From a virus (taxonomy: Duplodnaviria; Heunggongvirae; Uroviricota; Caudoviricetes): DNA of 44,348 nucleotides. The notes under the pieces are model-generated. The model did no database searches. It was not told where the DNA came from and saw nothing but the letters and a program-made list of their open reading frames with translations. The stretch's first letter is position 1. Each line of letters begins with the position of its first letter. Positions 840 through 42,125 of this stretch are shown one piece after another. Position numbers and translations under genes: made by a program. The DNA is taken from IMG/VR virus record IMGVR_UViG_2740892273_000003; one strand, written 5' to 3'.

Positions 840-1421
840 TTACCCTATAGGTGCTACTGGCCATTCAATATCCGGTGCAGTTGATGTATCAACACGGTTC
901 AGCAACACCCGATACTTTTTCCAAGCTTCCAGCAACAAGGTTTCTTTCTCCGTTGCGATCTCCAGATCCACAGCATCCTGAAGCGGCGCTATATGCTCAC
1001 TGGCTACCTGCATCAGGCTGTTTTTTGTTTCTTCCGCCTCCCGGATCCGGAACAGTTTTTCTGCTTCCGTATCCTTCACCCAGGCTGTGCCGTTCCACTT
1101 CTGAAACTCCCCTTCCGGCGACAACCAAGTAACATTTTCCGGTAACGGACCGAGTTCAGAAATAAATAACGCGTCGCCGGAAGCCACGTCATAAACCGTT
1201 TTACCCCGATGATCTTCAACGAGATGCCACGATGACTCATCACTGTTGAAAACAGCCACGAAACCAGCCGGAATATCTGGCGGTGCAATATCGGTACTGT
1301 TTGCAGGCAGACCTGTATGAGGCGGAATATATGCATCACCTTCACCAATAAATTCATTAGTTCCGGCCAGCAGGTTATAAATTTTTATGGTCCGTGCTTG
1401 TTCACTCATTCTGAATGCCAT
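840..1421 (-). CDS. tfa: Tail fiber assembly protein (lambda Tfa-like, 193 aa)
   Basis: ORF length and position immediately downstream of the side tail fiber gene; start overlaps stf stop. Confidence 0.8.
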
Positions 1422-19438: not shown

Positions 19439-23119
<3,681 letters not shown>

Positions 23120-28846: not shown

Positions 28847-29065
28847 TCAATGATGCAAACACTCAACAGCAATAACTTGTTGGCAATTCTGAGCAATCTC
28901 CCGCGACATACTAACAAGTCGTGAAATCTCGCCAAGATGCAAGCTGGCTTCTGGAGAAGCCAGAGCAACGCTAACCAGATCCAAAACGGCGTCGATGTCT
29001 TTTAGGTTTGATCCGAGTTCTTCAAGAGTTGATACAGGTGCTTCAGTCATTGAATCTAATACCAT
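28847..29065 (-). CDS. Small protein (67-72 aa) downstream of a LexA box; candidate SOS-inducible antirepressor
   Basis: ORF with alternative ATGs at ~29065 and ~29050; a LexA-box-like sequence lies ~25 bp upstream. Confidence 0.45.
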   Translation of the reverse strand: MVLDSMTEAPVSTLEELGSNLKDIDAVLDLVSVALASPEASLHLGEISRLVSMSREIAQNCQQVIAVECLHH

Positions 29066-29087: not shown

Positions 29088-29107
29088 TACTGTATAAAAT
29101 TACAGGG
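29088..29107 (-). promoter_or_regulatory. LexA box (SOS operator) overlapping a candidate promoter
   Basis: TACTGTATAAAATTACAGGG fits CTGT-N8-ACAG with an AT-rich centre; on the minus strand it overlaps TTGAGT-17-TACAGT promoter-like hexamers. Confidence 0.6.
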
Positions 29108-29134
29108 TAAAACTCAAATTTTATAGCCAACTTT

Positions 29135-29289
29135 CAATGGATTAACTGGTTAAATATCTTTGTAGTCCGATACTTATGTTCCCTTCCTACGCCTCGCCCA
29201 ACCACTTTCAAAAGCCCATCACCACCATCAGAAAAGCTCTTTTCGCTCCGTTTTCGTATCATTTCAAAAAGCAATGCCTTTTTGTCCAT
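29135..29289 (-). CDS. Unannotated small ORF (about 50 aa) with a strong Shine-Dalgarno sequence
   Basis: ATG at ~29289 preceded by GGAGGG at 5-nt spacing; translation MDKKALLFEMIRKRSEKSFSDGGDGLLKVVGRGVGREHKYRTTKIFNQLIH; below the track's 60-aa cutoff. Confidence 0.3.
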
Positions 29290-29298
29290 TTATCCCTC

Positions 29299-29312
29299 CG
29301 TGACCAGTCACA
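29299..29312. repeat. Palindrome CCGTGACCAGTCAC (GTGAC-N2-GTCAC), copy 1 of 2
   Basis: Shares the 14-bp core GTGACTGGTCACGG (reverse complement) with the palindrome at 40633-40652. Confidence 0.5.
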
Positions 29313-29634
29313 CTTTGAGCGCAAGTTTCAGCCTCGTGGTTGTAAGGTGGCATGAGCCTTCACCATCAAAAATGCATTCTGAAACAGGCATTTTTTGACC
29401 ACATCGCGGACAAGTAGTAGATAGCTGTTTCTGCAACTCCTTATAGTTTTTCCTGATCAGCAGTCCGATGACTTCGTTCTCTGAATATGGAACTCGCCCT
29501 GGTCTACGCAATACACAAATTTCCCCCAACATACGTAACTCGTCAGGTTCCAGAATCCAGTCACGTCTTGATGTTCCTTCCTTCTTCAACCGTTCCCTGC
29601 GTCTTCTTTGCCGTTCTGCCGGTGTCAGCGCCAT
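29308..29634 (-). CDS. Hypothetical protein (108 aa) with basic N-terminus and CxxC motif
   Basis: ORF; Arg-rich N-terminus MALTPAERQRRRRERLKKEG and CPRCG motif. Confidence 0.5.
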   Translation of the reverse strand: MALTPAERQRRRRERLKKEGTSRRDWILEPDELRMLGEICVLRRPGRVPYSENEVIGLLIRKNYKELQKQLSTTCPRCGQKMPVSECIFDGEGSCHLTTTRLKLALKV

Positions 29635-29649
29635 AAATCCTCCTGAAAA

Positions 29650-30180
29650 TTACTTAACCCAATTAACTACACCGCCAGCGGCCACAACCGCCCTTTCACA
29701 GTCACGCTCATATCTCAAAGGTTGAAATACACCATCAATAAAATATTTATCTCCACCAAACGCTGCAGGAAGTGAAACAGAAAACTGAATATGACCATCC
29801 GGAGTTACCGGAGAGTTGCCAGCCAGTCTACGCAACACAGCCTTAACGGCCTCAATACGGTCATCATCAACTTTTTCTACAATATTGGAATTTAAATACT
29901 TCGAAGCCTTGCTATGCCAATCGCTGGTTTTAGGGTCTTGTCCATCCATCAAACGCCAAGCTTCAGCGATTAACTCATAGCCAGTGACAGTGGCTTCCTG
30001 CGCATCACCAATAAGTCGTGTAATCTCTCTTTCAAGCCGACCGCCTAGCTCTGTTTTAGTGCAATGTTCTGACCAATCGCCAGCCTCAAGCAGCGCGAGA
30101 ATGCTTAAAATATCGTCCAATAGAACGGTAGTATTATCGACTTCCTTCTGAAACTCACCGGCTACTGATTTATGCATCAT
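29650..30180 (-). CDS. Hypothetical protein (176 aa)
   Basis: ORF in the early-right operon; contains a PVTPDGHIQFSVSLP segment related to the PVTPDGWISCSERMP segment of the neighbouring DUF551-like protein. Confidence 0.5.
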   Translation of the reverse strand: MMHKSVAGEFQKEVDNTTVLLDDILSILALLEAGDWSEHCTKTELGGRLEREITRLIGDAQEATVTGYELIAEAWRLMDGQDPKTSDWHSKASKYLNSNIVEKVDDDRIEAVKAVLRRLAGNSPVTPDGHIQFSVSLPAAFGGDKYFIDGVFQPLRYERDCERAVVAAGGVVNWVK

Positions 30181-30479
30181 TCGTCATCCTCATCTGAGTC
30201 ATCCTCATCACAGGATGAGAGTAGTGGGTTAGTCATTCGCCCTACTTGAGTGGCGTAGCCACGCCGACAGAGATTGCGCAGCACACTGTATATTTCGAAC
30301 ATCTCGGTTCGTTCATCACCAACATCAAGCTCAGATGCTATAGCGTGGCATTCAGTCGCGAGAGCCGATATTTTCTGAAATAACTCTGCTTTATTCACTC
30401 TTCGACTCCTGCGGCGGTTCTGGTAGTGGCATCCAGTGAGTTGCTTGCTCAATACCATTACCCGGCTTAATCGTTGCAT
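30177..30479 (-). CDS. Hypothetical acidic protein (100 aa as given; start uncertain)
   Basis: ORF overlapping the 3' end of the upstream gene by ~89 nt; poly-Asp/Glu C-terminus; true start likely internal. Confidence 0.3.
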   Translation of the reverse strand: MQRLSRVMVLSKQLTGCHYQNRRRSRRVNKAELFQKISALATECHAIASELDVGDERTEMFEIYSVLRNLCRRGYATQVGRMTNPLLSSCDEDDSDEDDE

Positions 30480-31140
30480 CTCCGCGCCGAAAGGTGCTTC
30501 CGGTATAGCGTGCGGAGCATATTAGCGGTTCAACCAGAGAGCTATCGAAATTCACCGAAATAAGCACGTTCTGGCCCTTTTCAGGCATTCGCTCACTACA
30601 GCTTATCCAACCATCCGGAGTTACCGGATAGTTGCCAGCCTCATACGCGACCCTTATCCAGTGCATAAGCATTTCAGTACTTACACATCCACAATCAACA
30701 TCAATTTTGTCATGCTGCTGTTCCAGCCATTGCTCAAAAGTTAACTTGTAAGTTTGGCTTACAGGTTTGGCTTCCAGTTCTGCTATGTGATTTTTGGCTG
30801 ATTCCAACTCAATCGACAATTTTTCCAACTGCTCTTTATGATTTTTATATTCCTGATATGCGTGCCAAGACTGACCTTTGCGCACACTATCAGTGATATC
30901 AGTAATCTGTTCTGGTGTTAGCGTGGTCAGTGGCTGTGATGGGAAAATAAGCACTTTCCCGGAATCCCAATCAAAACCAGCGTGAATTGACTGAACCTCA
31001 ACTGAAGGTGTTGAACCAATGCTGCCAGGCGAATGAACAACGATTGTTACATCCATATCGCGACGATGGCTGTGGTTGTTGGACAAAATACGATTCAACA
31101 AAATACGATTCACCAACTCAGAAAATTTAGAAAATTTCAT
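30391..31140 (-). CDS. DUF551-domain protein (249 aa)
   Basis: C-terminal WISCSERMPEKGQNVLISV...WMPLPEPP pattern typical of DUF551 proteins from lambdoid early regions. Confidence 0.55.
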   Translation of the reverse strand: MKFSKFSELVNRILLNRILSNNHSHRRDMDVTIVVHSPGSIGSTPSVEVQSIHAGFDWDSGKVLIFPSQPLTTLTPEQITDITDSVRKGQSWHAYQEYKNHKEQLEKLSIELESAKNHIAELEAKPVSQTYKLTFEQWLEQQHDKIDVDCGCVSTEMLMHWIRVAYEAGNYPVTPDGWISCSERMPEKGQNVLISVNFDSSLVEPLICSARYTGSTFRRGDATIKPGNGIEQATHWMPLPEPPQESKSE

Positions 31141-31505
31141 GCTGATTCACCTTTCTCTGCTCTCTCCTGTCGGAACATCACTATCATCAGGTCGCCTTTT
31201 GTCGCTATCTTGGCTGTTGTGCCTGGCTCAATGCGGCTAAGTTCAAATGCGTCATAGAACGCCTCCAACGCTTTCTGGCGTTTTTCCTGTTTGCGGCGCT
31301 TTCCCCACTGCTTTAGAAAAACAGAGGCCGCCCACTTCCCCGCACTGAACATGATGTAAAACCAACCGAGAAGTGCCAGACCGGTATTTAGGGCCGTATC
31401 GATCGTTATCGTGGTGTCGATATTCACTACGCCACCTCCTGAAAATTTCCCTGATAAAACGCCAACACACGCTGCATAACTTCGCTCTTCCGACAATCGT
31501 GACAA
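31137..31505 (-). CDS. Hypothetical membrane protein (122 aa as given; start uncertain)
   Basis: ORF overlapping the upstream gene by ~79 nt; one predicted TM segment LALLGWFYIMFSAGKWAASVF. Confidence 0.3.
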   Translation of the reverse strand: MSRLSEERSYAACVGVLSGKFSGGGVVNIDTTITIDTALNTGLALLGWFYIMFSAGKWAASVFLKQWGKRRKQEKRQKALEAFYDAFELSRIEPGTTAKIATKGDLMIVMFRQERAEKGESA

Positions 31506-31846
31506 ATCATGTTCAAGCGCCTGTCGTAACGACGTATTTCTCCGTCAGGTAATGACCAGATAAGGTCTGGATCAACCACTACCGATTTCTTCGGCTTTAC
31601 TCTTGATAGTTTTTTACGGGCGTTTTGCCAGTCCTTGCGTGCTTGTGCAGACAGAAATATCCCGGAGCCAGAGATATACAAATCACCGCTGGCAGCAAGC
31701 TCTCTTGATAAACGACTAACAGCACACCGGCTAATACCAGTTTCATCCGCAAGTTGCCTAACCGTTCCTCGTCCATTCAGGCGCACGAGTTCCACAATTT
31801 GTTTATTCAGTTCTTCCCTCTGTTCTGGTGTAAAAGCCTTTGCCAT
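31427..31846 (-). CDS. HTH DNA-binding protein (139 aa)
   Basis: Helix-turn-helix-like segment VRQLADETGISRCAVSRLSRELAASG. Confidence 0.5.
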   Translation of the reverse strand: MAKAFTPEQREELNKQIVELVRLNGRGTVRQLADETGISRCAVSRLSRELAASGDLYISGSGIFLSAQARKDWQNARKKLSRVKPKKSVVVDPDLIWSLPDGEIRRYDRRLNMICHDCRKSEVMQRVLAFYQGNFQEVA

Positions 31847-32445
31847 TACGATTCTCCTTGCCCTTTTACAAGACGGGAGAAAATTGCGGATACATATTTA
31901 GCCTGATGAATAGCATCAGCCAGGGCATTGTGTCGTTCGCCATCAAATGGCATATCTTTTTTAGGATTAAAACCAATAAACTGACCAAGATTAACGATTG
32001 TTCGAACATCCTGATCATTAAAATATTCCCACGGACAGGCTAAGCCAACGCGCTCATAAGCACCGCGTAAAATTACATTATCGAACGTTGCTCCATTTCC
32101 CCATACTTTCAACTTTTTTAAATTACATGCATGGCAAGTAATAAAGTGTGATAATTCAAAAAGTGCATCCTTAATATCAAGGGCATCATTAGTACAAATA
32201 GCGGCTCTGGCTTCCTTGCTCTGTTTCAACCACCATAAAATGGTATCACCATCGGCGATACCACCATTCAACATCGAGCTTCTGAGATTCACTGGCACAT
32301 AAAAGGTAGGACCTAATTCCTCACTTTCTGGAGAAAAAAACACTGCCCCGATAGAAACAATTGCAGCACATGTATTAGTACCCATTGTTTCAAGGTCAAT
32401 CATTACATCAGACCGTTTCCTGTCGTAAATAATCTGATTAGTCAC
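31846..32445 (-). CDS. DEDD-type 3'-5' exonuclease (199 aa)
   Basis: N-terminal MIDLETMG (Exo I motif) and C-terminal H...ALADA (Exo III-like motif). Confidence 0.65.
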   Translation of the reverse strand: MTNQIIYDRKRSDVMIDLETMGTNTCAAIVSIGAVFFSPESEELGPTFYVPVNLRSSMLNGGIADGDTILWWLKQSKEARAAICTNDALDIKDALFELSHFITCHACNLKKLKVWGNGATFDNVILRGAYERVGLACPWEYFNDQDVRTIVNLGQFIGFNPKKDMPFDGERHNALADAIHQAKYVSAIFSRLVKGQGES

Positions 32446-32468
32446 GAATAATTATCCTCAACGTTTAT

Positions 32469-32672
32469 CTATACCCAAAACTTCTGTTGATATGTTCTGG
32501 ATGGTTTTGGCGCTCTTTCTGATTCAGGTAAATGAACATAAACGCAATATCCATCACCTAAAAAATCAGAACGAACAACCAGAACTTTCTTACCACGCCG
32601 CCGATAAGTATCTGAAAGACGCTCTGCTTCATCATGCGTCATCGGCCCCTGCTTAAATGGCGTTATTTTCAT
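32469..32672 (-). CDS. Hypothetical small protein (about 67 aa from MKITPF)
   Basis: The track ORF starts inside a centromere-like palindrome; the internal ATG gives a 67-aa product. Confidence 0.4.
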   Translation of the reverse strand: MKITPFKQGPMTHDEAERLSDTYRRRGKKVLVVRSDFLGDGYCVYVHLPESERAPKPSRTYQQKFWV

Positions 32673-32973
32673 TTTCTTGTGCGACCACGGTCGCACCCTC
32701 TCTGATTTCCAAGTAACGCTTAATCCAAAGATTTTCTATATGCTTATTACCTGGCTGATTTGATAAATACCAATCGGCAATTACAGACTGCTTATTACTA
32801 TCTGGTCGTGTCCTGTAACCACAAGTTGGACACCAGATAACATATTCATTTCTTACCCCCGAATACCTTAATTCTGGCTTCGACGGTTTCCTGAACATAA
32901 CTTGTTTACAAAGGCAGAATGGCACTTCCTGCCCGATGGCGTTTGATGATTTCACTGCGCTTCTCCGCCGCAT
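32653..32973 (-). CDS. Hypothetical protein with zinc-ribbon-like motifs (106 aa as given)
   Basis: CxC...CxxC spacing (FCLCK ... WCPTCGY); start uncertain (internal MFRKP also possible). Confidence 0.4.
   Translation of the reverse strand: MRRRSAVKSSNAIGQEVPFCLCKQVMFRKPSKPELRYSGVRNEYVIWCPTCGYRTRPDSNKQSVIADWYLSNQPGNKHIENLWIKRYLEIREGATVVAQENENNAI
32680..32695. repeat. sopC-like centromere palindrome copy 4 (TGCGACCACGGTCGCA)
   Basis: Same 16-bp palindrome in the early-right operon, at the junction of two small ORFs. Confidence 0.6.
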
Positions 32974-33616
32974 TTAATAATGCAGTTCGATTTAAGCTCA
33001 GACATCGCGACTTAATTAAAAGCCAGCGTTCTTTATAATCTTGTCTCCAGCTATCAATAGATATATTCAGTAGAAAACTCAGATGCCTGTCCTGTTCTCT
33101 CTCATCAACTGCCTCAGCACACGTAAGTTCTGACTTAACCTGCTGTGCCGCGTAATAAATCAATTTTCTCATGGCTTTTTTCGTGGAGGCCTTCATTTTT
33201 TTAAACCCGCCACCCGAATGCGCAACCAGAAAATCAAGCCATAACCACTGACAAACAATCACATCATTGTTGTAGTCAGGCTTGCATCCGTAGCAATAAT
33301 AAAGCCAGGCTGATTCCTCGTTATTCAACTGACCAATAGCCCTGCGCCAGCTGGCGCTCTGAAAATCAATATCAGTGAGCAACATTGATGATTGTTTAAA
33401 TGTTTTGCCCTGGTGGAATCTAACCGGCTCAGCAGGAACAGACACTTCGTATGAGTTATCATCACCTACACTGATTGACCGGACTGGTTTATTGTTAAAG
33501 CGTCCTGATCTGCCTAGACGCATCTGCTCAAGCTGGACCTCTAGGATGCCACGCTGGCGATAATGAATATCAGCCAATGCCGTGGAGACGCAGCTGCGTA
33601 TATACTCAAGCTCCAC
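32906..33616 (-). CDS. Hypothetical protein (236 aa) translationally coupled to cro; possible late regulator, function not established
   Basis: ORF overlapping the cro 3' end; contains a CxxC pair (YYCYGC); no family recognised by eye. Confidence 0.45.
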   Translation of the reverse strand: MELEYIRSCVSTALADIHYRQRGILEVQLEQMRLGRSGRFNNKPVRSISVGDDNSYEVSVPAEPVRFHQGKTFKQSSMLLTDIDFQSASWRRAIGQLNNEESAWLYYCYGCKPDYNNDVIVCQWLWLDFLVAHSGGGFKKMKASTKKAMRKLIYYAAQQVKSELTCAEAVDEREQDRHLSFLLNISIDSWRQDYKERWLLIKSRCLSLNRTALLNAAEKRSEIIKRHRAGSAILPL

Positions 33617-33854
33617 GCTTACGGCTCTCCTTAATCGACTGCTTTACCCGCCGAGTTGTAAAGTCACTCTTCAGCTTGTAAGCAGTACGAACTTCAATAT
33701 CACTTTGCCGCAATGAAGGAATCTCTCCAGCGGTTAACCATTGGTAAACAGCACCGGGTGTTACACCTACCCCAGCCGCTGCTTTTTCTACACTGCCAAA
33801 GTGGCGAATAAGTTCTTCTGGTTTCATGCGGTTATTATAAGCAATAAATCGCAT
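33606..33854 (-). CDS. cro: Cro-like DNA-binding protein (82 aa)
   Basis: Small HTH protein (AAGVGVTPGAVYQWL) transcribed divergently from the repressor gene across an operator-containing 64-bp spacer. Confidence 0.7.
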   Translation of the reverse strand: MRFIAYNNRMKPEELIRHFGSVEKAAAGVGVTPGAVYQWLTAGEIPSLRQSDIEVRTAYKLKSDFTTRRVKQSIKESRKRGA

Positions 33855-33870
33855 TTAAAGCCAGCTATAA
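33855..33870. promoter_or_regulatory. Operator-like site TTAAAGCCAGCTATAA between cro and cB
   Basis: Imperfect copy of the adjacent 16-bp palindrome; located at the cro start. Confidence 0.5.
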
Positions 33871-33880
33871 TAAATAAATT

Positions 33881-33896
33881 TTATAGCCAGCTATAA
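33881..33896. promoter_or_regulatory. Operator-like palindrome TTATAGCCAGCTATAA between cro and cB
   Basis: Perfect 7-bp inverted arms TTATAGC/GCTATAA with a 2-bp centre, flanked by AT-rich promoter-like sequence. Confidence 0.55.
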
Positions 33897-33918
33897 GAAG
33901 ATCATTTATGATTAAGCT

Positions 33919-34515
33919 ATGAAAACACGAGGCGAACGACTGAAAGCACGCCGTTTAGAGATGAAGCTGACGTTGCGAGAAGTTGCTGAGGCTGTCGATA
34001 TCTCTATTGCAGGCGTCCAAAACTTAGAACGTGGCGACGTAATGCCGTCACTGGAGATAGGTATTGCCCTGGCTAAATGCTTACGCAAGCCAGTGCATTG
34101 GGTGCTGTATGGGACAGAATATGACCCTGATCGCATTCCTGTTATTGGCACAACTGAAAGTGGACCTGATGAAGAGTGGAAGCCAGGACAGGTTCCAAAT
34201 ACTGAGCGATTCCTGCCATTCATCAGCCAGCGCAATACTGTTTATGCGTTAACTATCAGCAATCTGGCGCAGGGAAACTATCAGCCTGGCGATTTTCTCC
34301 TGGTCGATTCTGCGCTGGAACTGGTCCCCGGCGAGGATGTTCTGGTTCGTGATACTGCAGGAAATATCACCATCCAGCGCCTGGCCCGTTTTGATGATGA
34401 AAATTACTATCTGGACGGAACAAATTCACAACGCGCTATCTTCAGGAAAAGCGATCTTGAATTTGTTCACCAAATAGTCGGAACGATCAAATCATTCATG
34501 GTTGAGGGTAGATGA
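33919..34515 (+). CDS. cB: Prophage repressor, cB/cI-type (HTH_XRE N-terminal domain plus LexA/S24-like C-terminal domain that appears to lack the catalytic Lys)
   Basis: N-terminal HTH LREVAEAVDISIAGVQNLERG; the C-terminal domain aligns by eye to the cI/LexA peptidase fold (PGDFLLVD) but has QRLAR where the catalytic Lys is expected. Confidence 0.75.
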   Translation: MKTRGERLKARRLEMKLTLREVAEAVDISIAGVQNLERGDVMPSLEIGIALAKCLRKPVHWVLYGTEYDPDRIPVIGTTESGPDEEWKPGQVPNTERFLPFISQRNTVYALTISNLAQGNYQPGDFLLVDSALELVPGEDVLVRDTAGNITIQRLARFDDENYYLDGTNSQRAIFRKSDLEFVHQIVGTIKSFMVEGR

Positions 34516-34616
34516 CTTAATACGGGGTTTATTGTTTGCTGTAAATCTGGTTTAATGCAGAGCATATGTTCTGTGGGTTGACTCAGGTTACAGCAGCAGA
34601 AAAAAGACGAAAAAAA

Positions 34617-34645
34617 ACCCGAGTCGGCAAACTCGGGTCCTTTTC
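34617..34645 (+). terminator. Intrinsic terminator between cB and repA
   Basis: A-tract, ACCCGAGT-cggcaa-ACTCGGGT, then CCTTTTC. Confidence 0.6.
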
Positions 34646-34760
34646 AGGAAGCAGCCACAGTAACGCGACGGATTCCGTCAATTCAAGATGCGTTTATTGT
34701 GGCTGCTCCTGCGGATTTTTTCAACCCGAAAAAACATAATTCGCATGGAATGGCTAAAAA

Positions 34761-37700
34761 ATGACATTAAACGATTTCTATGCGGATCGCTTTGGCAGCG
34801 ATCCGTTCTCGCTAATTGAAGCAGCACGGGATGAACTAACCGAGCTGGCACAGATGGCTGGTATCAACTGGTCTGCCTGTTCCGACAACATCCAACTCAA
34901 CCCTCGCGGGGGTGTTGAGCGTTACTCTTCATACAATAAAACATCCCCAGAAGCTCTCGAAAAGAGCCTCAAAGGACGCGTAGAAATTTACTCCCGGCTG
35001 GAACACAGCAAAGGGATTGATTACCCGTTCATTAACTTCGTCCATAAAGGCAGCGATGCTGGCTCATGGAGCGGTTTCTCCTTCCTGTTTTCTGAATATC
35101 GCCGTGAGCAACAACGGAATAATGCGACCGTGGTCGCACAACCGGAAGAAGAACGGGCAAGAATAGAACGTCAGGCCGAAGCACGTCGTCGCCGTGAAGA
35201 ACAAAAACGAATTAATGACCTGAAAAACAACCAAATGGACCATGAACGTTTGCTGGGATGGCTGGCATTCCACAGTGCTTGGGAACATGCTCCTGCAGAA
35301 GACGGCTCATGGCCATATGCGATTAAAAAAGGTATTCGTGACGTTTTTAATTCGTGTGATGTGCGTCGCGTGACCAGTCACGACAGCGCAAAATGGAGCA
35401 GGGGGCCAACCACGTATATGGCTATCCCTCTGGCTCACCTGGACGGTCGTTACGATGGTCGTATTGTTGGTTGGCAGCGAATCGACAAACAAGGTGGAAA
35501 ATACCAGACCAGCGCCGTAACCAGCGGCGATTTCGTCGGTGCCTGCTTTGTTATCGGTGAGCTGAAAGGGGCGCAAAACATCGCTGTTACAGAAGGTTTT
35601 GCTACTGGTGCATCCATCTGGCTTGCCACGAAAAAAGATAAACGCTTTGACGCTGTGGTTGTCGCTGTATCCGCTAACAACATGGTTCATGTTGTGGAAC
35701 AACTGGTAAACATGTACCCGGCGGCAAAAATCACCTGCGCACTGGATAATGACCGGAAATCAGCTACAGAAGGAAAAGGGAATACCGGCCTGCGGACTGG
35801 CTATGAAATCTTATCGAAATTCAACGATGTCCGCTGCGTCTATCCAACTTTTGAAGACGATCCGCAAATGGAGTGCAGTGACTTCAACGACCTGCACAAA
35901 CTACGTGGACTTCGTGAAACAGCACGTCAACTGTTTGCAACTGCAAACCGCCTGAAAACTGGCACTGATTTGCTATCTCTGACGCTCAACCGCCTGAAGA
36001 CAATTAAGCGGGATAACCGTCGTACTTTTGCCAAAGAGCTGCTGAGAGCAGTGGATATTGGCATGCTAACCTGTCCGGTTCCTAACAGTCCGTCAGACTT
36101 ATTTAACATGTTCTGCATCGTCCTGCGTGAAATTGGGCTGGAAAATATCTATCGCGCTACGGTAAAAGACCACATTGCCCGTCGCCTGAATAAAAAGTGC
36201 CGTATTGCCCAGGCTCCGCGCTCATTCAGCGAACGAATAACTGATCCCAATAAACGTCCTCAACATATCACCTATAAGCGTTTTGAAACTTCGGTAATGA
36301 CCGATGACGTCCTGAAGTATGTGCAATCACTACAGGGGATAGTCATCGTTCGTGCTGGTATGGGTTCCGGCAAATCTACTGGATTGTTACGACCTTTAAT
36401 GCATAGCTCAGAACGTGGTATCTCTGTTGCTCACCGTGTTTCCCTTATTGGTGGCCTGTGGGAAATGATGACAGAAGGAAAAGGTGTAAAAGCCGATATC
36501 CTGCACTATCAGGACCCTGGCTATCAGGAAATGGCTCCATACGCCAGTAAACTGACCATCTGCATAAACTCGATTGTTAAAAACTGCTGGCAACCATTGA
36601 TGCGCCAGCACGACTATTTTGGCTTTGACGAGGCCACGCAAGGGCTACGTGCCGTTCTTTCCGGTCGGGCTATGGAAAACCCGGTGGCTGTATTCAATAC
36701 GTTAATTGACGCGCTGGCCAGAACGGAACAACACCCAATAATGGTGGATGCTGATGCGAACGATCTGCTGGTTGACCTGGCTGAACTGGCTATGAAACGC
36801 CGTGAAGAACTAGGTTTACCGGCATGGCTGCAGATCCACGTAATTGAATTACCTGTTGATGTTCGCAACCGCGAAACAGGTGAGCCAATCCGGGTTTTTT
36901 ATACAGAAAAAGATCGCATTATGACCGAGGTGGTGAAAGCTGTATCGAATGGCGAAAAAATCATGTTGGCCACCGACAGCTCCACCTTTGCAGAAGATGT
37001 GACCGCCACCCTGAGAATGCATTTTCCTGGTAAGAAATTTCTGTGTGTAAACCAGAAAAACAAACCAGAGCCAGAAGTTGAAGCATTTACCAATCAACCG
37101 AAAAAGATGGTCAAAAAATACGACGGCCTGATTTATAGCCCGTCTATTTCATCCGGTGTGTCGATTGAGCAAAAACATTTTGACCGTCATTTCGGCATGT
37201 TCTGTGGTGAAGTTGTACCCAGCGACGCAGTGCAAATGCTACGCCGCGACCGTACAGCAAAAGAATTTATTATCGGCTTTGATAAAGCTCGCGCAAAACG
37301 TGAAACTGACCCGCAAAAAATAGAACGAGCATTCGCCCAGGCATTGCTTGCTACCGCAGGCATGAACGGTGAACTGACGGATGTCGTTTTCGATGGCGAC
37401 CGTATATCAATGGGGGTGGCCAATACCGACTTTACCAGGATGAAAATTAAAGCAGCCGCAATTGAAGCGTCTGCGCGTAACGACTACGCCAGCAACATGA
37501 TCTGCATCATGCACAGCGACGGTTATAAGGTATCGCCGCTGGCCACCGATTATGCTGCGAATGATATCGGTAAAGATCTGCGTAAAGAAGCGCGGGATAT
37601 TGTGTGGGAACAGACACTGGATCTGCATCTCAATACAGAAACTCCACAAGAATCAGAGCGTGAAGAACTGCTAAAAAAACGCGCGCTGACGCTTGAAGAA

Positions 37701-38756
37701 CAAGCAAAACTTGTCCGCTGGGATATTGAGAACGAACTGAAACTACCGGTTGAAGAAGGCACGCTGAAATTCTATTTCGATGGTGCTCGAGACAAAGTTC
37801 GCCGCTATGAAACAATGCTTTTAGATGAGGTAACAGCTCGTCGTTACGACCGGGAAGAAGCAGCCATCAATTTTACCTACGCATACCGTCAGGCGGGACA
37901 GTGGCAATATTTTGTAGTGACCGCGATGACTCGCGAGCAGGCTGATGATGTCTTTAAAACTAAATTCCCTGGAATAATCGACTACAAGGTAAAAGCTACT
38001 CCTACTGTTGAAGTCGGGGCGCGCGGTTTCTATGCGCTTAAATCAGCAACTCTCCGGCAGTACTTTATCGACTGCGGTATCAACCCTGAGACTATGACCG
38101 GCGAGGCGACTCAGGAGCGTCTCAAATTCGCTCGAGATAACCTCATGACAGCCGAACGCCGTGACCTGTTGAATAACGTTCTGCACATTGGTGGTTTTAT
38201 GACGCCAAAAGGGAAGCCTAAAGTGCCGGAAGCGTTGTTTAAAAACATTTGCGACTCTCTTGGCCTTAAAACAGGTAAACGTCGCGGCAGAGACGGCGAT
38301 AAGCGTCCAACCTTGCGTTTTGTTGAGCCTGAATCAGCGGCATTTATGCTGGATATTCTTGTTCAGCGTCAGAAAGATGGCCTAACCCTAAAAACGCGTA
38401 AAGCCGAGAAGACAGCCATCGAAATGGATCGCGATTTGGATCTCAATATATATATGGATGATAAAACGCGATCCACAAACGAGCAGGTTCAAAACGCCCC
38501 TCATTCAGTAATTTCTGAGGCTTTGGCCGTATTGCCGGTGGCTGTTCCTGAGTCCTGGGCGATGAGTGCGCTTTCCGGTGAGGAGCTGGCCACTATGTCA
38601 TCATGGTCATCAGCCAGCATAGCTATGACGTTTGCATCTCTGTATCTCACAGAGTTCATGGATCACTTGTCCAGCAATGAATTGCGGCGGTTACGAGAAT
38701 ACATTACCGGGAATAGCTCATGCAGCTACGAAGAGCAGGGCGCTTTCTATGGGTAA
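34761..38756 (+). CDS. repA: Replication protein RepA, multidomain primase-helicase (1331 aa, N15 RepA-like)
   Basis: Toprim-like primase motifs (NIAVTEGFATGASI; CALDNDRK), Walker A (GMGSGKST) and Walker B (YFGFDEAT) in the central region; size close to the ~1.3 kaa N15 RepA as recalled. Confidence 0.8.
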   Translation: MTLNDFYADRFGSDPFSLIEAARDELTELAQMAGINWSACSDNIQLNPRGGVERYSSYNKTSPEALEKSLKGRVEIYSRLEHSKGIDYPFINFVHKGSDAGSWSGFSFLFSEYRREQQRNNATVVAQPEEERARIERQAEARRRREEQKRINDLKNNQMDHERLLGWLAFHSAWEHAPAEDGSWPYAIKKGIRDVFNSCDVRRVTSHDSAKWSRGPTTYMAIPLAHLDGRYDGRIVGWQRIDKQGGKYQTSAVTSGDFVGACFVIGELKGAQNIAVTEGFATGASIWLATKKDKRFDAVVVAVSANNMVHVVEQLVNMYPAAKITCALDNDRKSATEGKGNTGLRTGYEILSKFNDVRCVYPTFEDDPQMECSDFNDLHKLRGLRETARQLFATANRLKTGTDLLSLTLNRLKTIKRDNRRTFAKELLRAVDIGMLTCPVPNSPSDLFNMFCIVLREIGLENIYRATVKDHIARRLNKKCRIAQAPRSFSERITDPNKRPQHITYKRFETSVMTDDVLKYVQSLQGIVIVRAGMGSGKSTGLLRPLMHSSERGISVAHRVSLIGGLWEMMTEGKGVKADILHYQDPGYQEMAPYASKLTICINSIVKNCWQPLMRQHDYFGFDEATQGLRAVLSGRAMENPVAVFNTLIDALARTEQHPIMVDADANDLLVDLAELAMKRREELGLPAWLQIHVIELPVDVRNRETGEPIRVFYTEKDRIMTEVVKAVSNGEKIMLATDSSTFAEDVTATLRMHFPGKKFLCVNQKNKPEPEVEAFTNQPKKMVKKYDGLIYSPSISSGVSIEQKHFDRHFGMFCGEVVPSDAVQMLRRDRTAKEFIIGFDKARAKRETDPQKIERAFAQALLATAGMNGELTDVVFDGDRISMGVANTDFTRMKIKAAAIEASARNDYASNMICIMHSDGYKVSPLATDYAANDIGKDLRKEARDIVWEQTLDLHLNTETPQESEREELLKKRALTLEEQAKLVRWDIENELKLPVEEGTLKFYFDGARDKVRRYETMLLDEVTARRYDREEAAINFTYAYRQAGQWQYFVVTAMTREQADDVFKTKFPGIIDYKVKATPTVEVGARGFYALKSATLRQYFIDCGINPETMTGEATQERLKFARDNLMTAERRDLLNNVLHIGGFMTPKGKPKVPEALFKNICDSLGLKTGKRRGRDGDKRPTLRFVEPESAAFMLDILVQRQKDGLTLKTRKAEKTAIEMDRDLDLNIYMDDKTRSTNEQVQNAPHSVISEALAVLPVAVPESWAMSALSGEELATMSSWSSASIAMTFASLYLTEFMDHLSSNELRRLREYITGNSSCSYEEQGAFYG
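35123..35138. repeat. sopC-like centromere palindrome copy 5 (TGCGACCGTGGTCGCA), inside repA
   Basis: Same palindrome embedded in the repA coding sequence (encodes NATVVAQ). Confidence 0.6.
38424..38476. other. Candidate replication origin inside the repA 3' region
   Basis: Imperfect inverted repeats GGATCGCGATTT / AAACGCGATCC containing GATC sites, flanking an ATATATATAT tract. Confidence 0.35.
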
Positions 38757-38940
38757 TCAGTGGATATTATCTTTGTGTCTCTTGCTTTGTGTGTTCCAGC
38801 AATGGTTTTGGTTCATAGATCGAAAGTCTCACAAGGAAAACATGAAGGCCAGGAAGGCGATGTTTCGTGGTGAACAACTCGCGCAGACTTATCGTATGTG
38901 GAAACGCTTCTATCGTGATTTTTCGGTGAACGGGGAGTAA
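38749..38940 (+). CDS. Small membrane protein (63 aa) translationally coupled to repA
   Basis: ATG overlaps the repA stop (TATGGGTAA); hydrophobic N-terminus ILSLCLLLCVFQQWFWFI. Confidence 0.4.
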   Translation: MGNQWILSLCLLLCVFQQWFWFIDRKSHKENMKARKAMFRGEQLAQTYRMWKRFYRDFSVNGE

Positions 38941-38944
38941 AAAT

Positions 38945-39271
38945 ATGTCTACTACTGCATTTTTGGACAAACTTGATTACCGTCAGCTGCAGTTCTGCCG
39001 GGATGAATGCGATCGACGCATTAAGGCTATCCAGGAGGAAGAAAAAAAGGTCGCCTGGGCTGTAACAGATCGTGGCCTTATCTTTGGCTGGTTCCGTACG
39101 GAGGATTACCTGAAAGCAGTGGAATTATTGGCGCGTAAGGCTGCTGAGCGTTGGGAACGAGCCGACAAGGAAAACCCGGAGACGAAGTATGAACTGAATC
39201 TCTACATCGAGGGCAACCGTCTACCATTGTCAGAGTATAACGCTTTGTTTGCTGATGGTGAGTGGGGTTAA
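38945..39271 (+). CDS. Hypothetical protein (108 aa)
   Basis: ORF in an operon downstream of repA. Confidence 0.45.
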   Translation: MSTTAFLDKLDYRQLQFCRDECDRRIKAIQEEEKKVAWAVTDRGLIFGWFRTEDYLKAVELLARKAAERWERADKENPETKYELNLYIEGNRLPLSEYNALFADGEWG

Positions 39272-39273
39272 AA

Positions 39274-39669
39274 ATGGCTGTTCAATCATACAAATACGAA
39301 TCCCCTTTGGATAAGGGATACATTCGTATCAAGTTAAGTCGTTCTCAACATAAGGCTATTTTTAAGGTAAGGAAAATTCGCATATTGGATGCGTATGCGT
39401 ATTACTACAACGGTGAAAATGTTGTTGTTGAACACTTTCTTGCACGATGGTTTGTAGCTCTGATTTTTGTCCCTCTCCTGTTAATTGGTACTTTTGTGGA
39501 TGGTTTTCCTAGTACATGGCGGGAGATAAAGAAAGGCCTATTCCCGCGTAAGTACGGCAGATTTTCGCAAGATAGCTGGCGAGTTATACCTGGTAAACAT
39601 TCTGTGGATGAGCAGCCGATTGTTGATTACTGGTTGAAGCGTATGGCTGATGCTAAAAAAGTTGATTGA
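39274..39669 (+). CDS. Hypothetical membrane protein (about 131 aa), AT-rich
   Basis: One central TM segment WFVALIFVPLLLIGTFV; GC content visibly lower than flanking genes. Confidence 0.45.
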   Translation: MAVQSYKYESPLDKGYIRIKLSRSQHKAIFKVRKIRILDAYAYYYNGENVVVEHFLARWFVALIFVPLLLIGTFVDGFPSTWREIKKGLFPRKYGRFSQDSWRVIPGKHSVDEQPIVDYWLKRMADAKKVD

Positions 39670-39758
39670 ATAGTGATGACTGTTCAAGTTAAACCGTTCT
39701 CGGCATATTTTATTTAATGGAATAACATATTATTAATCAAATAGGTTAAGTTAATATT

Positions 39759-40571
39759 ATGCGTAACAAAAAAACAACAGCTTTATTACTCTCTATCTTG
39801 TTATTATCTGGATGCACTTATCAATATGATAATAAGGCATCAACGGACGTTGAGTATAAATTCGAAAAAGAAAAAAGAGTACCTATCAACTCTGTTGGTG
39901 ATTTTAGCAGCAAAATACTCACAGGTAAGGAATTTAATAGAATTATTGCATCAAAGATAGATGATGGTTCATGGCGTGGATATGTCGTTCACTCATTAAC
40001 ATACGCGCCATACAACAACGTTTTAACATCTCAAGGTTTGTCTATCCCTAGAAGTATCACATACTCAGGAACATATCTTAACCGTGATTTTGTTGAGAAT
40101 AGCGGTAGTGATAGCGTGATAACATCTCGAGATATGTCTGGATGGTATGGTTTTCATGTCGATTCCTCTGAAATAACAAAGCATGGAAGCTATGTTGGTG
40201 CTAATGCTTTTGGAATATCTGCTGATGTAGAAGTGTTAAATACTTTAGGTGCCGAAATTATCTTTGGTAGTACACAAATAAATGAAGGGAACCCTGAAAC
40301 AATATGGGCAGATATTGATATAAAAGGACAAATACCAAAAGATGTTAATGTAAAAGACCTTAGAATTGAATATTTAGCAAAGATAAATGGGTTAAGCAGT
40401 AATCATATTGATATAACATCACCTACTATTTTTAACCCGTCAGATATGAGCCATAAAACTCAGGTTTTTATGGGTGAGTTATTAGCCGCGCGCCTAATAA
40501 ATATTAAAACGGGAGAAATTTATCCAGTACAGCTAGAGTGGGTGTTCCGTTCGCGTGAGGCTTTCTTATAA
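39759..40571 (+). CDS. Lipoprotein (270 aa), AT-rich moron-like gene
   Basis: Signal peptide with lipobox LLLSGC; markedly AT-rich coding sequence; followed by a perfect hairpin GAACAAT-aac-ATTGTTC. Confidence 0.55.
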   Translation: MRNKKTTALLLSILLLSGCTYQYDNKASTDVEYKFEKEKRVPINSVGDFSSKILTGKEFNRIIASKIDDGSWRGYVVHSLTYAPYNNVLTSQGLSIPRSITYSGTYLNRDFVENSGSDSVITSRDMSGWYGFHVDSSEITKHGSYVGANAFGISADVEVLNTLGAEIIFGSTQINEGNPETIWADIDIKGQIPKDVNVKDLRIEYLAKINGLSSNHIDITSPTIFNPSDMSHKTQVFMGELLAARLINIKTGEIYPVQLEWVFRSREAFL

Positions 40572-40632
40572 CGGAACAATAACATTGTTCATGTTCTGAT
40601 CGTTTGTTCAAGCAAACTATAAAAACACCTGT

Positions 40633-40652
40633 CCCCGTGACTGGTCACGGGG
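40633..40652. repeat. 20-bp palindrome CCCCGTGAC-TG-GTCACGGGG upstream of the antirepressor locus (GTGAC-N2-GTCAC copy 2)
   Basis: Perfect 9-bp arms with a 2-bp centre, too tight for an RNA hairpin, so more likely a protein-binding site; shares a 14-bp core with the 29299-29312 site. Confidence 0.5.
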
Positions 40653-40699
40653 TAAAATGTCTTTGCAAATTATTGACGTGTGCGTCGTTTTGGAGGTAA

Positions 40700-40786
40700 A
40701 GTCACCTCGCTGCGGTAAATCCCGCAGTCGGGACTTCGCAATCCTGGCAAAACGAAGCGCACAACACGCGCCAGCGTGTTTTTTTG
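40700..40786 (+). ncRNA. Candidate small regulatory RNA (P1 c4 / N15 CA-like) preceding icd-ant
   Basis: Promoter-like TTGACG (~40673) with a weak -10; hairpin CTGCGG-taaatc-CCGCAG; intrinsic terminator ACACGC-gcca-GCGTGT then TTTTTTT at ~40764-40786; lies directly upstream of an icd-like gene. Confidence 0.4.
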
Positions 40787-40951
40787 TGTGTATAGACCTG
40801 CGCATATCCGAATTATGGTGGCTCAGGTGGGGCTGACTTCGGTCGGGCCGGTTTCTTCGTTTACCGGTATTGCGAACCCCGCCTGGGCTACCACCAATAA
40901 AGAGATTCGCAACTCTGGTGGTAGCACGACCAATAAAACGGAGTGCATACC

Positions 40952-41116
40952 ATGTTCAAATTCAAATTTGCGGCAGTCGTTCGCACAGACAAAAAGTCCC
41001 ACATTCATCATCTTTCCACTATCGCGTCATCTGAACGGGAAGCTCGTCGCCAGTTCGCCAGCCGGTTTGTCCTGGTATTGTCTGCCCGTATTCCGGTGCG
41101 CGAGGTGGCTGCATGA
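40952..41116 (+). CDS. icd: Icd-like cell division inhibitor (54 aa)
   Basis: MFKFKFAAVVRTDKK...EREARRQFASRFVLVLSARIPVREV fits the pattern recalled for P1-type Icd-like proteins; GGAG RBS. Confidence 0.55.
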   Translation: MFKFKFAAVVRTDKKSHIHHLSTIASSEREARRQFASRFVLVLSARIPVREVAA

Positions 41117-41346
41117 ATCAGGTAAAAATGAACACTGTTGGCCTGCTGGAATCGTTGGATGAACGTCTGGCTCAGGTCTATGCGCTCGTATCATCAGCCC
41201 ATCGGACAGTCTCCAGTTGTGAGGCGTCGATTTACCTCTCAGAGGCTGGAAAACTTCTGCAGATTGCGTGTGAGTTAACGCATGAAGCACAGGGATATTC
41301 TGCGTCTCTCTCGTCGCACTTGCTGCGCGATAAGGAGGCTGAATGA
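41113..41346 (+). CDS. Hypothetical protein (77 aa) in the icd-ant operon
   Basis: ATGA overlaps with both the upstream and downstream genes. Confidence 0.5.
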   Translation: MNQVKMNTVGLLESLDERLAQVYALVSSAHRTVSSCEASIYLSEAGKLLQIACELTHEAQGYSASLSSHLLRDKEAE

Positions 41347-42125
41347 GCGCGTTAGCAGTCTTTTCCTTTCAGGAAGAGCATCAGGTTCGTGTAGTGATGA
41401 TTAACGGTGAGCCGTGGTTTGTGGCTAAGGATGTATGTGATGCTTTAAGACTCGTTAATTCCCGGAAGGCGCTAATGTCTCTGGATGAGGATGAAAAGGG
41501 TGTAACTTTAAGTTACACCCCTGGCGGAGAGCAAAAGCTAAATATTATTTCAGAGTCAGGTCTATACACCCTGATCCTCCGCTGCCGTGACGCGGTGAAG
41601 CAAGGCACAACAGCTTGGCGGTTTCGCAAATGGGTAACGAACGAAGTCTTGCCCTCTATTCGCAAAAATGGAGAGTACGTTTACATCGAGCCTGAGCCAA
41701 TGCGAGCAGCGGAGCCGTTGAACTGGAGGCAGAAAGAGTATCTGCGAGGGCTGATTAACGATATAGCACAAAGTTTTCAGTACCGAAATGCCTGGATTAG
41801 CGGTGTATGGTTAGCTTTGCGTCGGGCGTGTCGTAATCCATCCCCGAACCCCATAACGGTTGATGATTTGCCAGCAATTACGGCAGAACTGCGCCGGATT
41901 TTGACGGCTGCTGAGTCGGCATTGGGGAACATGCGCACGTATGAACGAGAGTTGTTGCGTGATGTTGTTCGTGGGGGTAGGCGGAGTATGTCGTGTGGTG
42001 ATTTACCCATCACCGATATTAACTCTGATCTGGAAAAGGCGTTACCCGCGCATTTTGAACTGGCAGTTCAAAAACTTGAGCAGTTATCCGCGCAGCTAAA
42101 GCCAGCAGAAATCACCAATAAATAG
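41343..42125 (+). CDS. ant: Antirepressor with Bro-N domain (260 aa)
   Basis: N-terminal FSFQEEHQVRVVMINGEPWFVAKDVCDALRL...SESGLYTLILR...KWVTNEVLPSIRKNG matches the Bro-N domain pattern. Confidence 0.7.
   Translation: MSALAVFSFQEEHQVRVVMINGEPWFVAKDVCDALRLVNSRKALMSLDEDEKGVTLSYTPGGEQKLNIISESGLYTLILRCRDAVKQGTTAWRFRKWVTNEVLPSIRKNGEYVYIEPEPMRAAEPLNWRQKEYLRGLINDIAQSFQYRNAWISGVWLALRRACRNPSPNPITVDDLPAITAELRRILTAAESALGNMRTYERELLRDVVRGGRRSMSCGDLPITDINSDLEKALPAHFELAVQKLEQLSAQLKPAEITNK

Follow-up and report, generated by a model that had tools for sequence, protein, structure and literature searches.

Which protein reads the short palindrome GTGAC-NN-GTCAC, which stands beside both antirepressor loci of an N15-like phage, and what does it do there? 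We analyzed this question in a stretch of 44,348 nucleotides from a virus of the class Caudoviricetes (IMG/VR record IMGVR_UViG_2740892273_000003), which is called the window below. A preliminary description had noticed the palindrome at two places and had suggested that a third sequence-specific DNA-binding protein coordinates the two anti-immunity loci. Our comparisons indicate that the palindrome, whose usual form is CGTGAC-NN-GTCACG, is a real, strongly conserved DNA signal under nucleotide-level selection. It is probably the operator of a ribbon-helix-helix (RHH) protein of the gp46 family, which would act as a roadblock or insulator of transcription, as judged from sequence comparison and a structural model. 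The case for gp46 as the reader is built on the predicted fold, on the phyletic pattern and on the linkage of gene and site.

Over the early and replication regions, the window is 98% identical to Escherichia phage PhiR46_1 and 95% identical to YDC107_1, and N15 and phiKO2 are about 75% identical to it. Thus, by its sequence, the window is an N15-like (Ravinvirus) linear phage-plasmid. The gene assignments were taken from the annotated records of N15, phiKO2, PhiR46_1 and YDC107_1.

Copies of the palindrome and their conservation

The 12-bp palindrome occurs exactly three times in the window, at 29300-29311 (site 1), 35370-35381 (site 2) and 40637-40648 (site 3). The two loci noticed earlier are real: the exact 14-mer GTGACTGGTCACGG was found at 40637-40650 (plus strand) and 29298-29311 (minus strand). 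The interval 40633-40652 given for the first is that of a 20-bp palindrome, CCCCGTGACTGGTCACGGGG, which contains the 14-mer, and the interval 29299-29312 given for the second was one base off. The list of two copies was incomplete, because the third exact core, inside the replication gene repA, had been missed. The shared 14-mer was rejected as significant by itself, since about ten unrelated 14-mer pairs are present in the same window. Three copies of one 5-N2-5 palindrome, against about 0.04 expected, are nominally significant but borderline after counting the possible palindromes. Therefore, the motif had to be tested by comparison with relatives.

For this comparison, which the preliminary description had proposed among N15-like genomes, 69 loci around repA homologues from viral contigs were used; 21 of them are PY54-like, and the rest include the N15/phiKO2 clade. 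The motif is kept at the same three places. The whole N15 genome contains exactly three exact sites (28550, 33237 and 39269), and PhiR46_1 and phiKO2 each contain exactly three, at the corresponding places, in the regions compared. The three sites are also present, in synteny, in the 47 N15-clade loci (RepA at least 78% identical) wherever the sequence reaches far enough. The inter-site distances differ by kilobases among these loci because the intervening genes are mosaic. GTGAC-NN-GTCAC was not found in any of the 21 PY54-like loci, nor in PY54. All ten half-site positions are the same in the 26-29 unique sequences compared for each site, whereas the central two bases (TG/CA, GG/CC) and the flanks vary. 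Thus, the element is a true palindrome that is read on both halves. In the YDC107_1 record (L003, CP025712.1), the region from repA to telN is present twice, in inverted orientation, so that the record has five motif sites; this doubling resembles an artefact of assembly or a replication intermediate joined head to head.

The strongest constraint was observed at site 2 (GTGACCAGTCAC), which lies 610 nt into repA (34761..38756, plus strand) and covers the codons V-T-S-H. This gene encodes a primase/helicase/origin-binding replication protein, and also contains a Sop centromere site and the probable origin of replication (ori). In a codon alignment of 35 unique sequences, the 17-nt run at 35367-35383, CGCGTGACCAGTCACGA, is the longest invariant run in the 4-kb gene. 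It includes five consecutive invariant third positions, compared with a background of 12.7% invariant third positions in repA. Comparable invariance was found only at the Sop centromere site (codon 122) and in an ori-like segment near codon 1223; the centromere copy, which also has invariant synonymous positions, served as the positive control of the method. Upstream of site 2 by 32 bp is a conserved half-site, ATTCGTGACGT (35334..35344), with 11 invariant nucleotides. In two more distant telomere-phage lineages, L051 (RepA 65%) and L075 (RepA 55%), this half-site position is a second full palindrome. Their repA genes thus carry two full palindromes 32 bp, or three helical turns, apart (L051, 6753 and 6785; L075, 1272 and 1304), and no palindrome was found elsewhere on these contigs. 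Neither a terminator nor an internal or antisense promoter was found at site 2.

A second cluster of invariant synonymous positions lies in repA at codons ~1223-1242 (~38420-38490) and comprises ATCGAAATGGATCGCGAT, AATATATAT and CGATCCACA. The cluster is GATC- and AT-rich, has a DnaA-box-like end, and is probably the internal ori of repA.

The motif had been described as distinct from the CB/Cro operators and the Sop centromere sites, and this holds: both sequences and positions differ, so that the palindrome is a third site family. The CB/Cro operators are of the TTATAGC type, are 16 bp long, and lie between cB and cro and upstream of repA. The published ones are the immB sites only (PMC4488713, PMC4997575), and those annotated in N15 (34056-34094 and 34729-34793) are separate from the three N15 motif sites. 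The centromere-type palindrome GCGACCACGGTCGC has five copies in the window, in either orientation (24296, 24516, 27556, 32681 and 35124). When membership was examined, the motif was neither a CB/Cro operator nor a sopC-like centromere site.

The gp46 family and its linkage to the palindrome

At site 1 (GTGACCAGTCAC; GTGACTGGTCAC on the minus strand), the gene of the gp46 homologue (29308..29634, minus strand) ends with the TGA of the motif as its stop codon; the homologue is a predicted RHH DNA-binding protein of 108 aa and the proposed binder of all three sites. The gp46 gene was found in 45 of the 48 motif-positive loci and in none of the 21 motif-negative loci; the three exceptions are contigs that are short on that side. 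In unrelated phages, gp46 homologues of only 30-40% identity likewise have the palindrome on their stop codon or immediately behind it. Such linked cases were found in an integrated lambdoid prophage (L076, GTGACCTGTCAC), a metagenomic contig (L082), the Salmonella podovirus epsilon15 (gp49), the Pantoea myovirus AH07 (gene 31), Pectobacterium ZF40 (gp22, with the site 3 nt after the stop codon) and a P2-like Yersinia phage. Against about 0.04 exact sites expected per genome, epsilon15 and ZF40 contain three each and AH07 two. Vibrio phage K233 has three exact sites in the 24-kb part examined.

The linkage was quantified in two sets of relatives. Among 80 relatives of the L076 protein, a site lies at most 15 nt from the stop codon in 66 of the 78 loci with enough sequence, and in 58 of these 66 the TGA of the motif is itself the stop codon. 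These loci contain 94 exact sites in 940 kb (0.9 expected). A second subfamily, with 31 relatives, gave 58 sites in 528 kb (0.5 expected). Together, the two sets amount to 1.47 Mb with 152 exact sites, where about 1.4 would be expected, so that chance is excluded. Among Yersinia phages, the P2-like one has both the gene and the motif, whereas PY54 lacks both. The motif thus goes with the phage gene rather than with the host.

The stop codons in L079 and L080 have AT-rich palindromes, which were considered as an alternative specificity. Because the 31 relatives in that subfamily carry GTGAC-NN-GTCAC, these palindromes are regarded as coincidental. In Aeromonas phage 14AhydR10PP (L088), a non-palindromic variant repeat of about 26 nt, GTGACCGGACACGA(A/G)(G/A)GGTTAAAT, is present at 251 and 3032, upstream of two genes, one of which is the RHH homologue.

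The gp46 protein has no Pfam or NCBIfam match, and none of 64 family members matched an RHH family of Pfam. It belongs to PHROG 536, which is labelled 'transcriptional regulator', and its relatives are named 'hypothetical' in public sources. An exhaustive profile search for the family gave about 100 clusters at 50% identity, and members are present in epsilon15-like, P2-like, lambdoid and Vibrio temperate phages. In a profile search against the PDB, the best RHH-type match was TTHA0139 (E about 0.8). An AlphaFold model was built from the 64-sequence alignment; a run with 18 close homologues (predicted local distance difference test, pLDDT, 56) was set aside. The model has a pLDDT of 89 and confidently shows the beta-alpha-alpha order (beta-strand, helix, helix) of the RHH fold. 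Its best structural matches are the RHH proteins Arc, Mnt, CopG and MetJ and the ParD/TacA antitoxins. Thus, gp46 is predicted to have an RHH DNA-binding fold. The preliminary description had listed this 108-aa reading frame among helix-turn-helix candidates; it is indeed the best candidate for the binder, with a different predicted fold.

Across the family, an N-terminal basic helix (R8 invariant, R13 nearly so) precedes the RHH core, and a C-terminal part with the pattern C-x2-C...C...C follows it. Of its cysteines, C75, C78 and C95 are conserved and C87 less strictly, and a second CxxC is absent. This Cys-rich part looks zinc-ribbon-like, and its match to YbiI/TraR, which have the C4 zinc finger of DksA/TraR, is weak (E 0.045-0.07).

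Site contexts, proposed action and alternatives

In the N15 clade, sites 1 and 3 lie where the two divergent early operons run into antirepressor loci. The motif thus marks the entrances of both loci, as described before. However, it is not confined to anti-immunity loci: the third and most strongly constrained site is in repA, and L051 and L075 have repA sites only.

Site 1 is conserved in 29 unique N15-clade sequences with variable flanks. Directly after it are the GGAGG ribosome-binding site and the gene of the gp47 homologue (29134..29289, minus strand, 51 aa), followed by a LexA (SOS) box, CTGTATAAAATTACAG (29090..29105), about 195 bp from site 1. Behind the box lies an antC-like, SOS-controlled antirepressor reading frame of 72 aa (28847..29065, minus strand; anti-repressor PHROG 6301/10889), which shares its PHROG with antA. 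AntC is a LexA-controlled antirepressor (PMC3121763). In 34 of 34 unique N15-clade loci, the distance from the gp46 stop codon downstream to the LexA box is 200-294 nt. Neither a promoter nor a terminator was found at site 1.

Several features of this locus stand apart from the palindrome. The window gp47 is shortened by an in-frame internal deletion of about 29 residues, compared with 80 aa in PhiR46_1 and 73 aa in N15; the deleted residues look like the winged-helix core. The N15 RefSeq record (L002, NC_001901) has no coding sequence for the antC-like reading frame at 39605-39832, which lies behind the LexA box CTGTGTTTATATACAG at 39564 and aligns with the 72-aa frame of the window. The 14-mer AAATTTTATAGCCA occurs both beside the antC SOS box (29116-29129) and between cB and cro (33876-33889), which suggests a CB/Cro-type operator at the antC promoter.

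Site 3 (GTGACTGGTCAC, 40637..40648) is the core of the 20-bp palindrome; the extension to 20 bp is not kept in N15 or phiKO2. The last reading frame of the repA operon ends 66 bp before site 3, and the -35 element of the immA promoter follows 24 bp after the site; the latter spacing is fixed across N15-clade sequences. The promoter is sigma-70-like (TTGACG-18-TAAAGT, 40673..40702, plus strand), and its predicted start coincides with the 5' end of an isrK-like RNA with a terminator (40709-40784; RF01394, 52.8 bits). This RNA and a C4 antisense RNA (40811-40898; RF01695, 82.3 bits), both on the plus strand, form the leader (40709..40898) of the icd-antA-antB antirepressor operon, with the antA-like gene at 41113-41346 and the antB-like gene, which encodes a Bro-N domain, at 41343-42125 (both plus strand). 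A terminator scan flagged the isrK terminator and not the motif at site 3, where no T-run follows on the transcribed strand.

The immA operon is absent from L051 and the antC locus from L075, and in both cases the corresponding site is missing as well while the repA sites are kept; in L075, a gp46 homologue is present without a site at its stop codon. In epsilon15 (L083), all three sites are at the 3' ends of rightward transcription units. The one at 19517 overlaps the gp18 stop codon and abuts the 3' end of the convergent gp19. Since a LexA box, CTGTATAAACATACAG (19841), precedes gp19, this gene may be an SOS-controlled antirepressor-like gene.

From these observations, we propose the following model. 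A gp46-family dimer would bind GTGAC-NN-GTCAC, and the gene and one site, on its own stop codon, would form a cassette, with one or two more copies of the site elsewhere. Because the gene is in the early rightward operon, behind cro and Q, gp46 is expected, by lambdoid analogy, to be synthesised once infection or induction has taken place. At that stage, it would occupy site 1, at the junction of this operon with gp47 and the SOS-controlled antC; site 2, inside repA, with the half-site 32 bp upstream; and site 3, at the junction of the repA operon with the isrK/C4-icd-antA-antB promoter. Bound gp46 would act as a roadblock or insulator, limiting early-operon transcription into both antirepressor loci and through repA. 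At site 3, with its fixed distance to the -35 element, it might also modulate the immA promoter. We favor this action because of the operon-junction positions, the LexA-box pattern, the losses in L051 and L075, and the 3'-end sites of epsilon15.

Several points weigh against the proposed model. For an RHH repressor, it is unusual that all three sites lie clear of any recognisable promoter, and we know of no close precedent for a roadblock by an RHH protein. The contrast between PY54-like and N15-like loci amounts to about one phylogenetic split. The DNA-facing positions of the predicted beta-strand vary across members that share the motif, so that DNA may be read through the basic helix instead of the ribbon, or the sites may have another binder. 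A LexA box follows the RHH gene by 28-165 nt in L075, the Yersinia phage and L193, but it is rare in the larger sets (3 of 75 and 2 of 26 loci). A general link between the RHH gene and a LexA box was thus rejected, and it holds in the N15 clade and a few lineages. Finally, the extra sites of other phages lie in heterogeneous contexts, namely in cII-like and Q-like genes, upstream of terS, flanking replication genes and at operon ends, which fit an architectural role as well as a roadblock.

Because of these contexts, an architectural role is a serious rival. In this case, gp46 dimers would bridge dispersed sites, or recruit or exclude host factors, as MatP does, and would insulate the segment of the replication module. 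MatP is a host RHH protein, and its site, matS, is the 13-bp sequence GTGAC[AG]N[TC]GTCAC (PMC3603311, PMC8669397). We regard this role as unlikely. Gp46 was rejected as a MatP homologue, since hhalign gave a probability of 0.3% and thus no sequence relationship, and the gp46 model has neither a four-helix bundle nor a coiled coil. The spacer is 2 bp rather than 3, nothing indicates gp46 oligomers beyond the dimer, and the fixed 24 bp between site 3 and the immA -35 element suggests coupling to a promoter.

The phage half-sites match those of matS exactly, and the distribution of MatP overlaps the host range of these phages. A host protein, either MatP tolerating a shorter spacer or another factor, might therefore read the sites, with gp46 a mere neighbor. 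However, the motif tracks the phage gene, and the gene-site cassette in 66 of the 78 loci and in many further loci would be left unexplained. No exact 13-mer match to matS was found in the window, and a 1-bp change in spacer normally abolishes binding by a rigid dimer. A host reader is thus very improbable.

Another phage protein seems a highly improbable binder. The candidates are the winged-helix-like gp47 and AntB, whose genes adjoin the sites, downstream of site 1 and site 3, respectively. Bro-N domains, such as that of AntB, are predicted DNA binders, and AntB was found in 42 of the 48 motif-positive and none of the 21 motif-negative loci (AntA, 41 of 48 and 1 of 21). Gp47 was rejected on the basis of its phyletic pattern, since 17 of the 21 motif-free loci carry a homologue; in addition, the window gp47 carries the deletion, yet the sites are intact. 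L051, an incomplete contig, and L075 have the repA sites, yet no antA, antB or gp47 homologue was found in them. No gene resembling gp47, antA or antB is listed in the annotations of epsilon15, ZF40 and the Yersinia phage, which were not checked by tblastn; what these phages have in common with N15 is the RHH gene at the site.

Selection on an RNA element (hairpin, terminator, RNase III site or translational coupling) or a chance repeat is hardly credible: site 3 is extended to 20 bp in the window, site 1 is flanked by a stop codon and the ribosome-binding site that follows, and the epsilon15 sites adjoin annotated terminators, but the site 3 extension is not conserved, the core alone gives a stem of 4 bp only, no GC-rich hairpin with a T-run on the transcribed strand was found at sites 1, 2 or 3, and the excess of 152 sites excludes chance. 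Furthermore, even between very distant phages the stem stays invariant, with no compensatory changes, and it is the 'loop' that varies; selection for RNA structure would produce the reverse.

Two further features of the window lie apart from these subjects. In its left part, 880-1078 (minus strand) matches the Rfam IS009 small RNA with 218 bits. A 19-nt exact direct repeat, ACCATCCGGAGTTACCGGA, is present at 29794-29812 and 30610-30628, in two neighboring minus-strand reading frames.

Comparison with known systems

The motif and its variants were absent from the papers searched; key N15 papers in subscription journals lie outside this search, so that an earlier description is possible. In the GenBank records of N15, phiKO2 and epsilon15, nothing is annotated at the motif positions. 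The regulator-operator pair proposed here joins an RHH protein of an uncharacterised family to an operator on its own stop codon and to dispersed sites off promoters. Among linear phage-plasmids, N15 serves as the model, and the linear pJAZZ cloning vectors are based on it; these retain repA (PMC2847241) and therefore carry site 2. The N15 control circuits described in the accessible literature are CB/Cro, Q, the CA RNA, LexA/AntC and Sop; if our model is correct, these circuits would be joined by one more regulator-operator pair, whose targets lie at the two antirepressor loci and within the replication gene. The model would also assign a fold and a DNA motif, together with a function that can be tested, to a family that comprises about 100 clusters and has no Pfam model. 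An operator that overlaps a stop codon and has half-sites identical to those of matS is unusual and easily testable.

As in other RHH repressor-operator pairs, gp46 is small, and its proposed site is short, two-fold symmetric and linked to its own gene. Unlike the known RHH families, gp46 has no sequence match in Pfam, NCBIfam or the PDB, and has the extra N-terminal basic helix and the Cys-rich C-terminal part. Unlike RHH operators, the sites lie off promoters, one on the stop codon of its own gene and the others within genes or at operon ends.

The immI region of P22 is similar in that an RHH protein is associated with the antirepressor loci of a temperate phage, and in the N15 clade the sites stand at the entrances of both loci. 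In P22, the Arc and Mnt operators overlap Pant and Pmnt, and arc is in the ant operon. In contrast, neither site 1 nor site 3 overlaps an antirepressor promoter in this way: they are about 195 bp from the LexA box and 24 bp upstream of the -35 element, respectively. Moreover, gp46 is in the early operon, and a further site is inside repA. The proposed roadblock or insulator would thus functionally resemble the control of P22 ant by Arc and Mnt, with a different architecture.

The CB/Cro operators and SopB sites are likewise dispersed short palindromes in the same genome, and the repA centromere site is also synonymously invariant. Unlike the motif, they do not co-occur with the gp46 gene in other phage types.

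The likeness to MatP/matS of E. coli and its relatives lies in the identical half-sites, GTGAC and GTCAC, in an RHH core preceded by a basic helix, and in sites that are few, dispersed and off promoters. The differences are that the spacer is 2 bp at all phage sites, that the protein and its sites are phage-borne, and that the gp46 model has a single N-terminal helix and a Cys-rich tail, so that only the RHH core is shared. Beside its three 12-bp sites, K233 (L086) has at 6772 a 13-mer, GTGACACCGTCAC, that fits the matS consensus. True matS has been reported to be absent from 500 prophages (PMC3603311). The resemblance may be taken as a lead on recognition, with one RHH dimer per short palindrome and the basic helix helping, and not as membership. 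That the gp46 family is a phage-borne, MatP-like architectural class reading 'matS minus one base' is decidedly unlikely. If it were so, the phage genome would be partitioned into insulated domains of transcription and replication or, alternatively, gp46 would interfere with the host systems acting at matS (MatP, MukBEF and the divisome). The shorter spacer would then hide the phage sites from MatP, consistent with the reported avoidance of matS by prophages.

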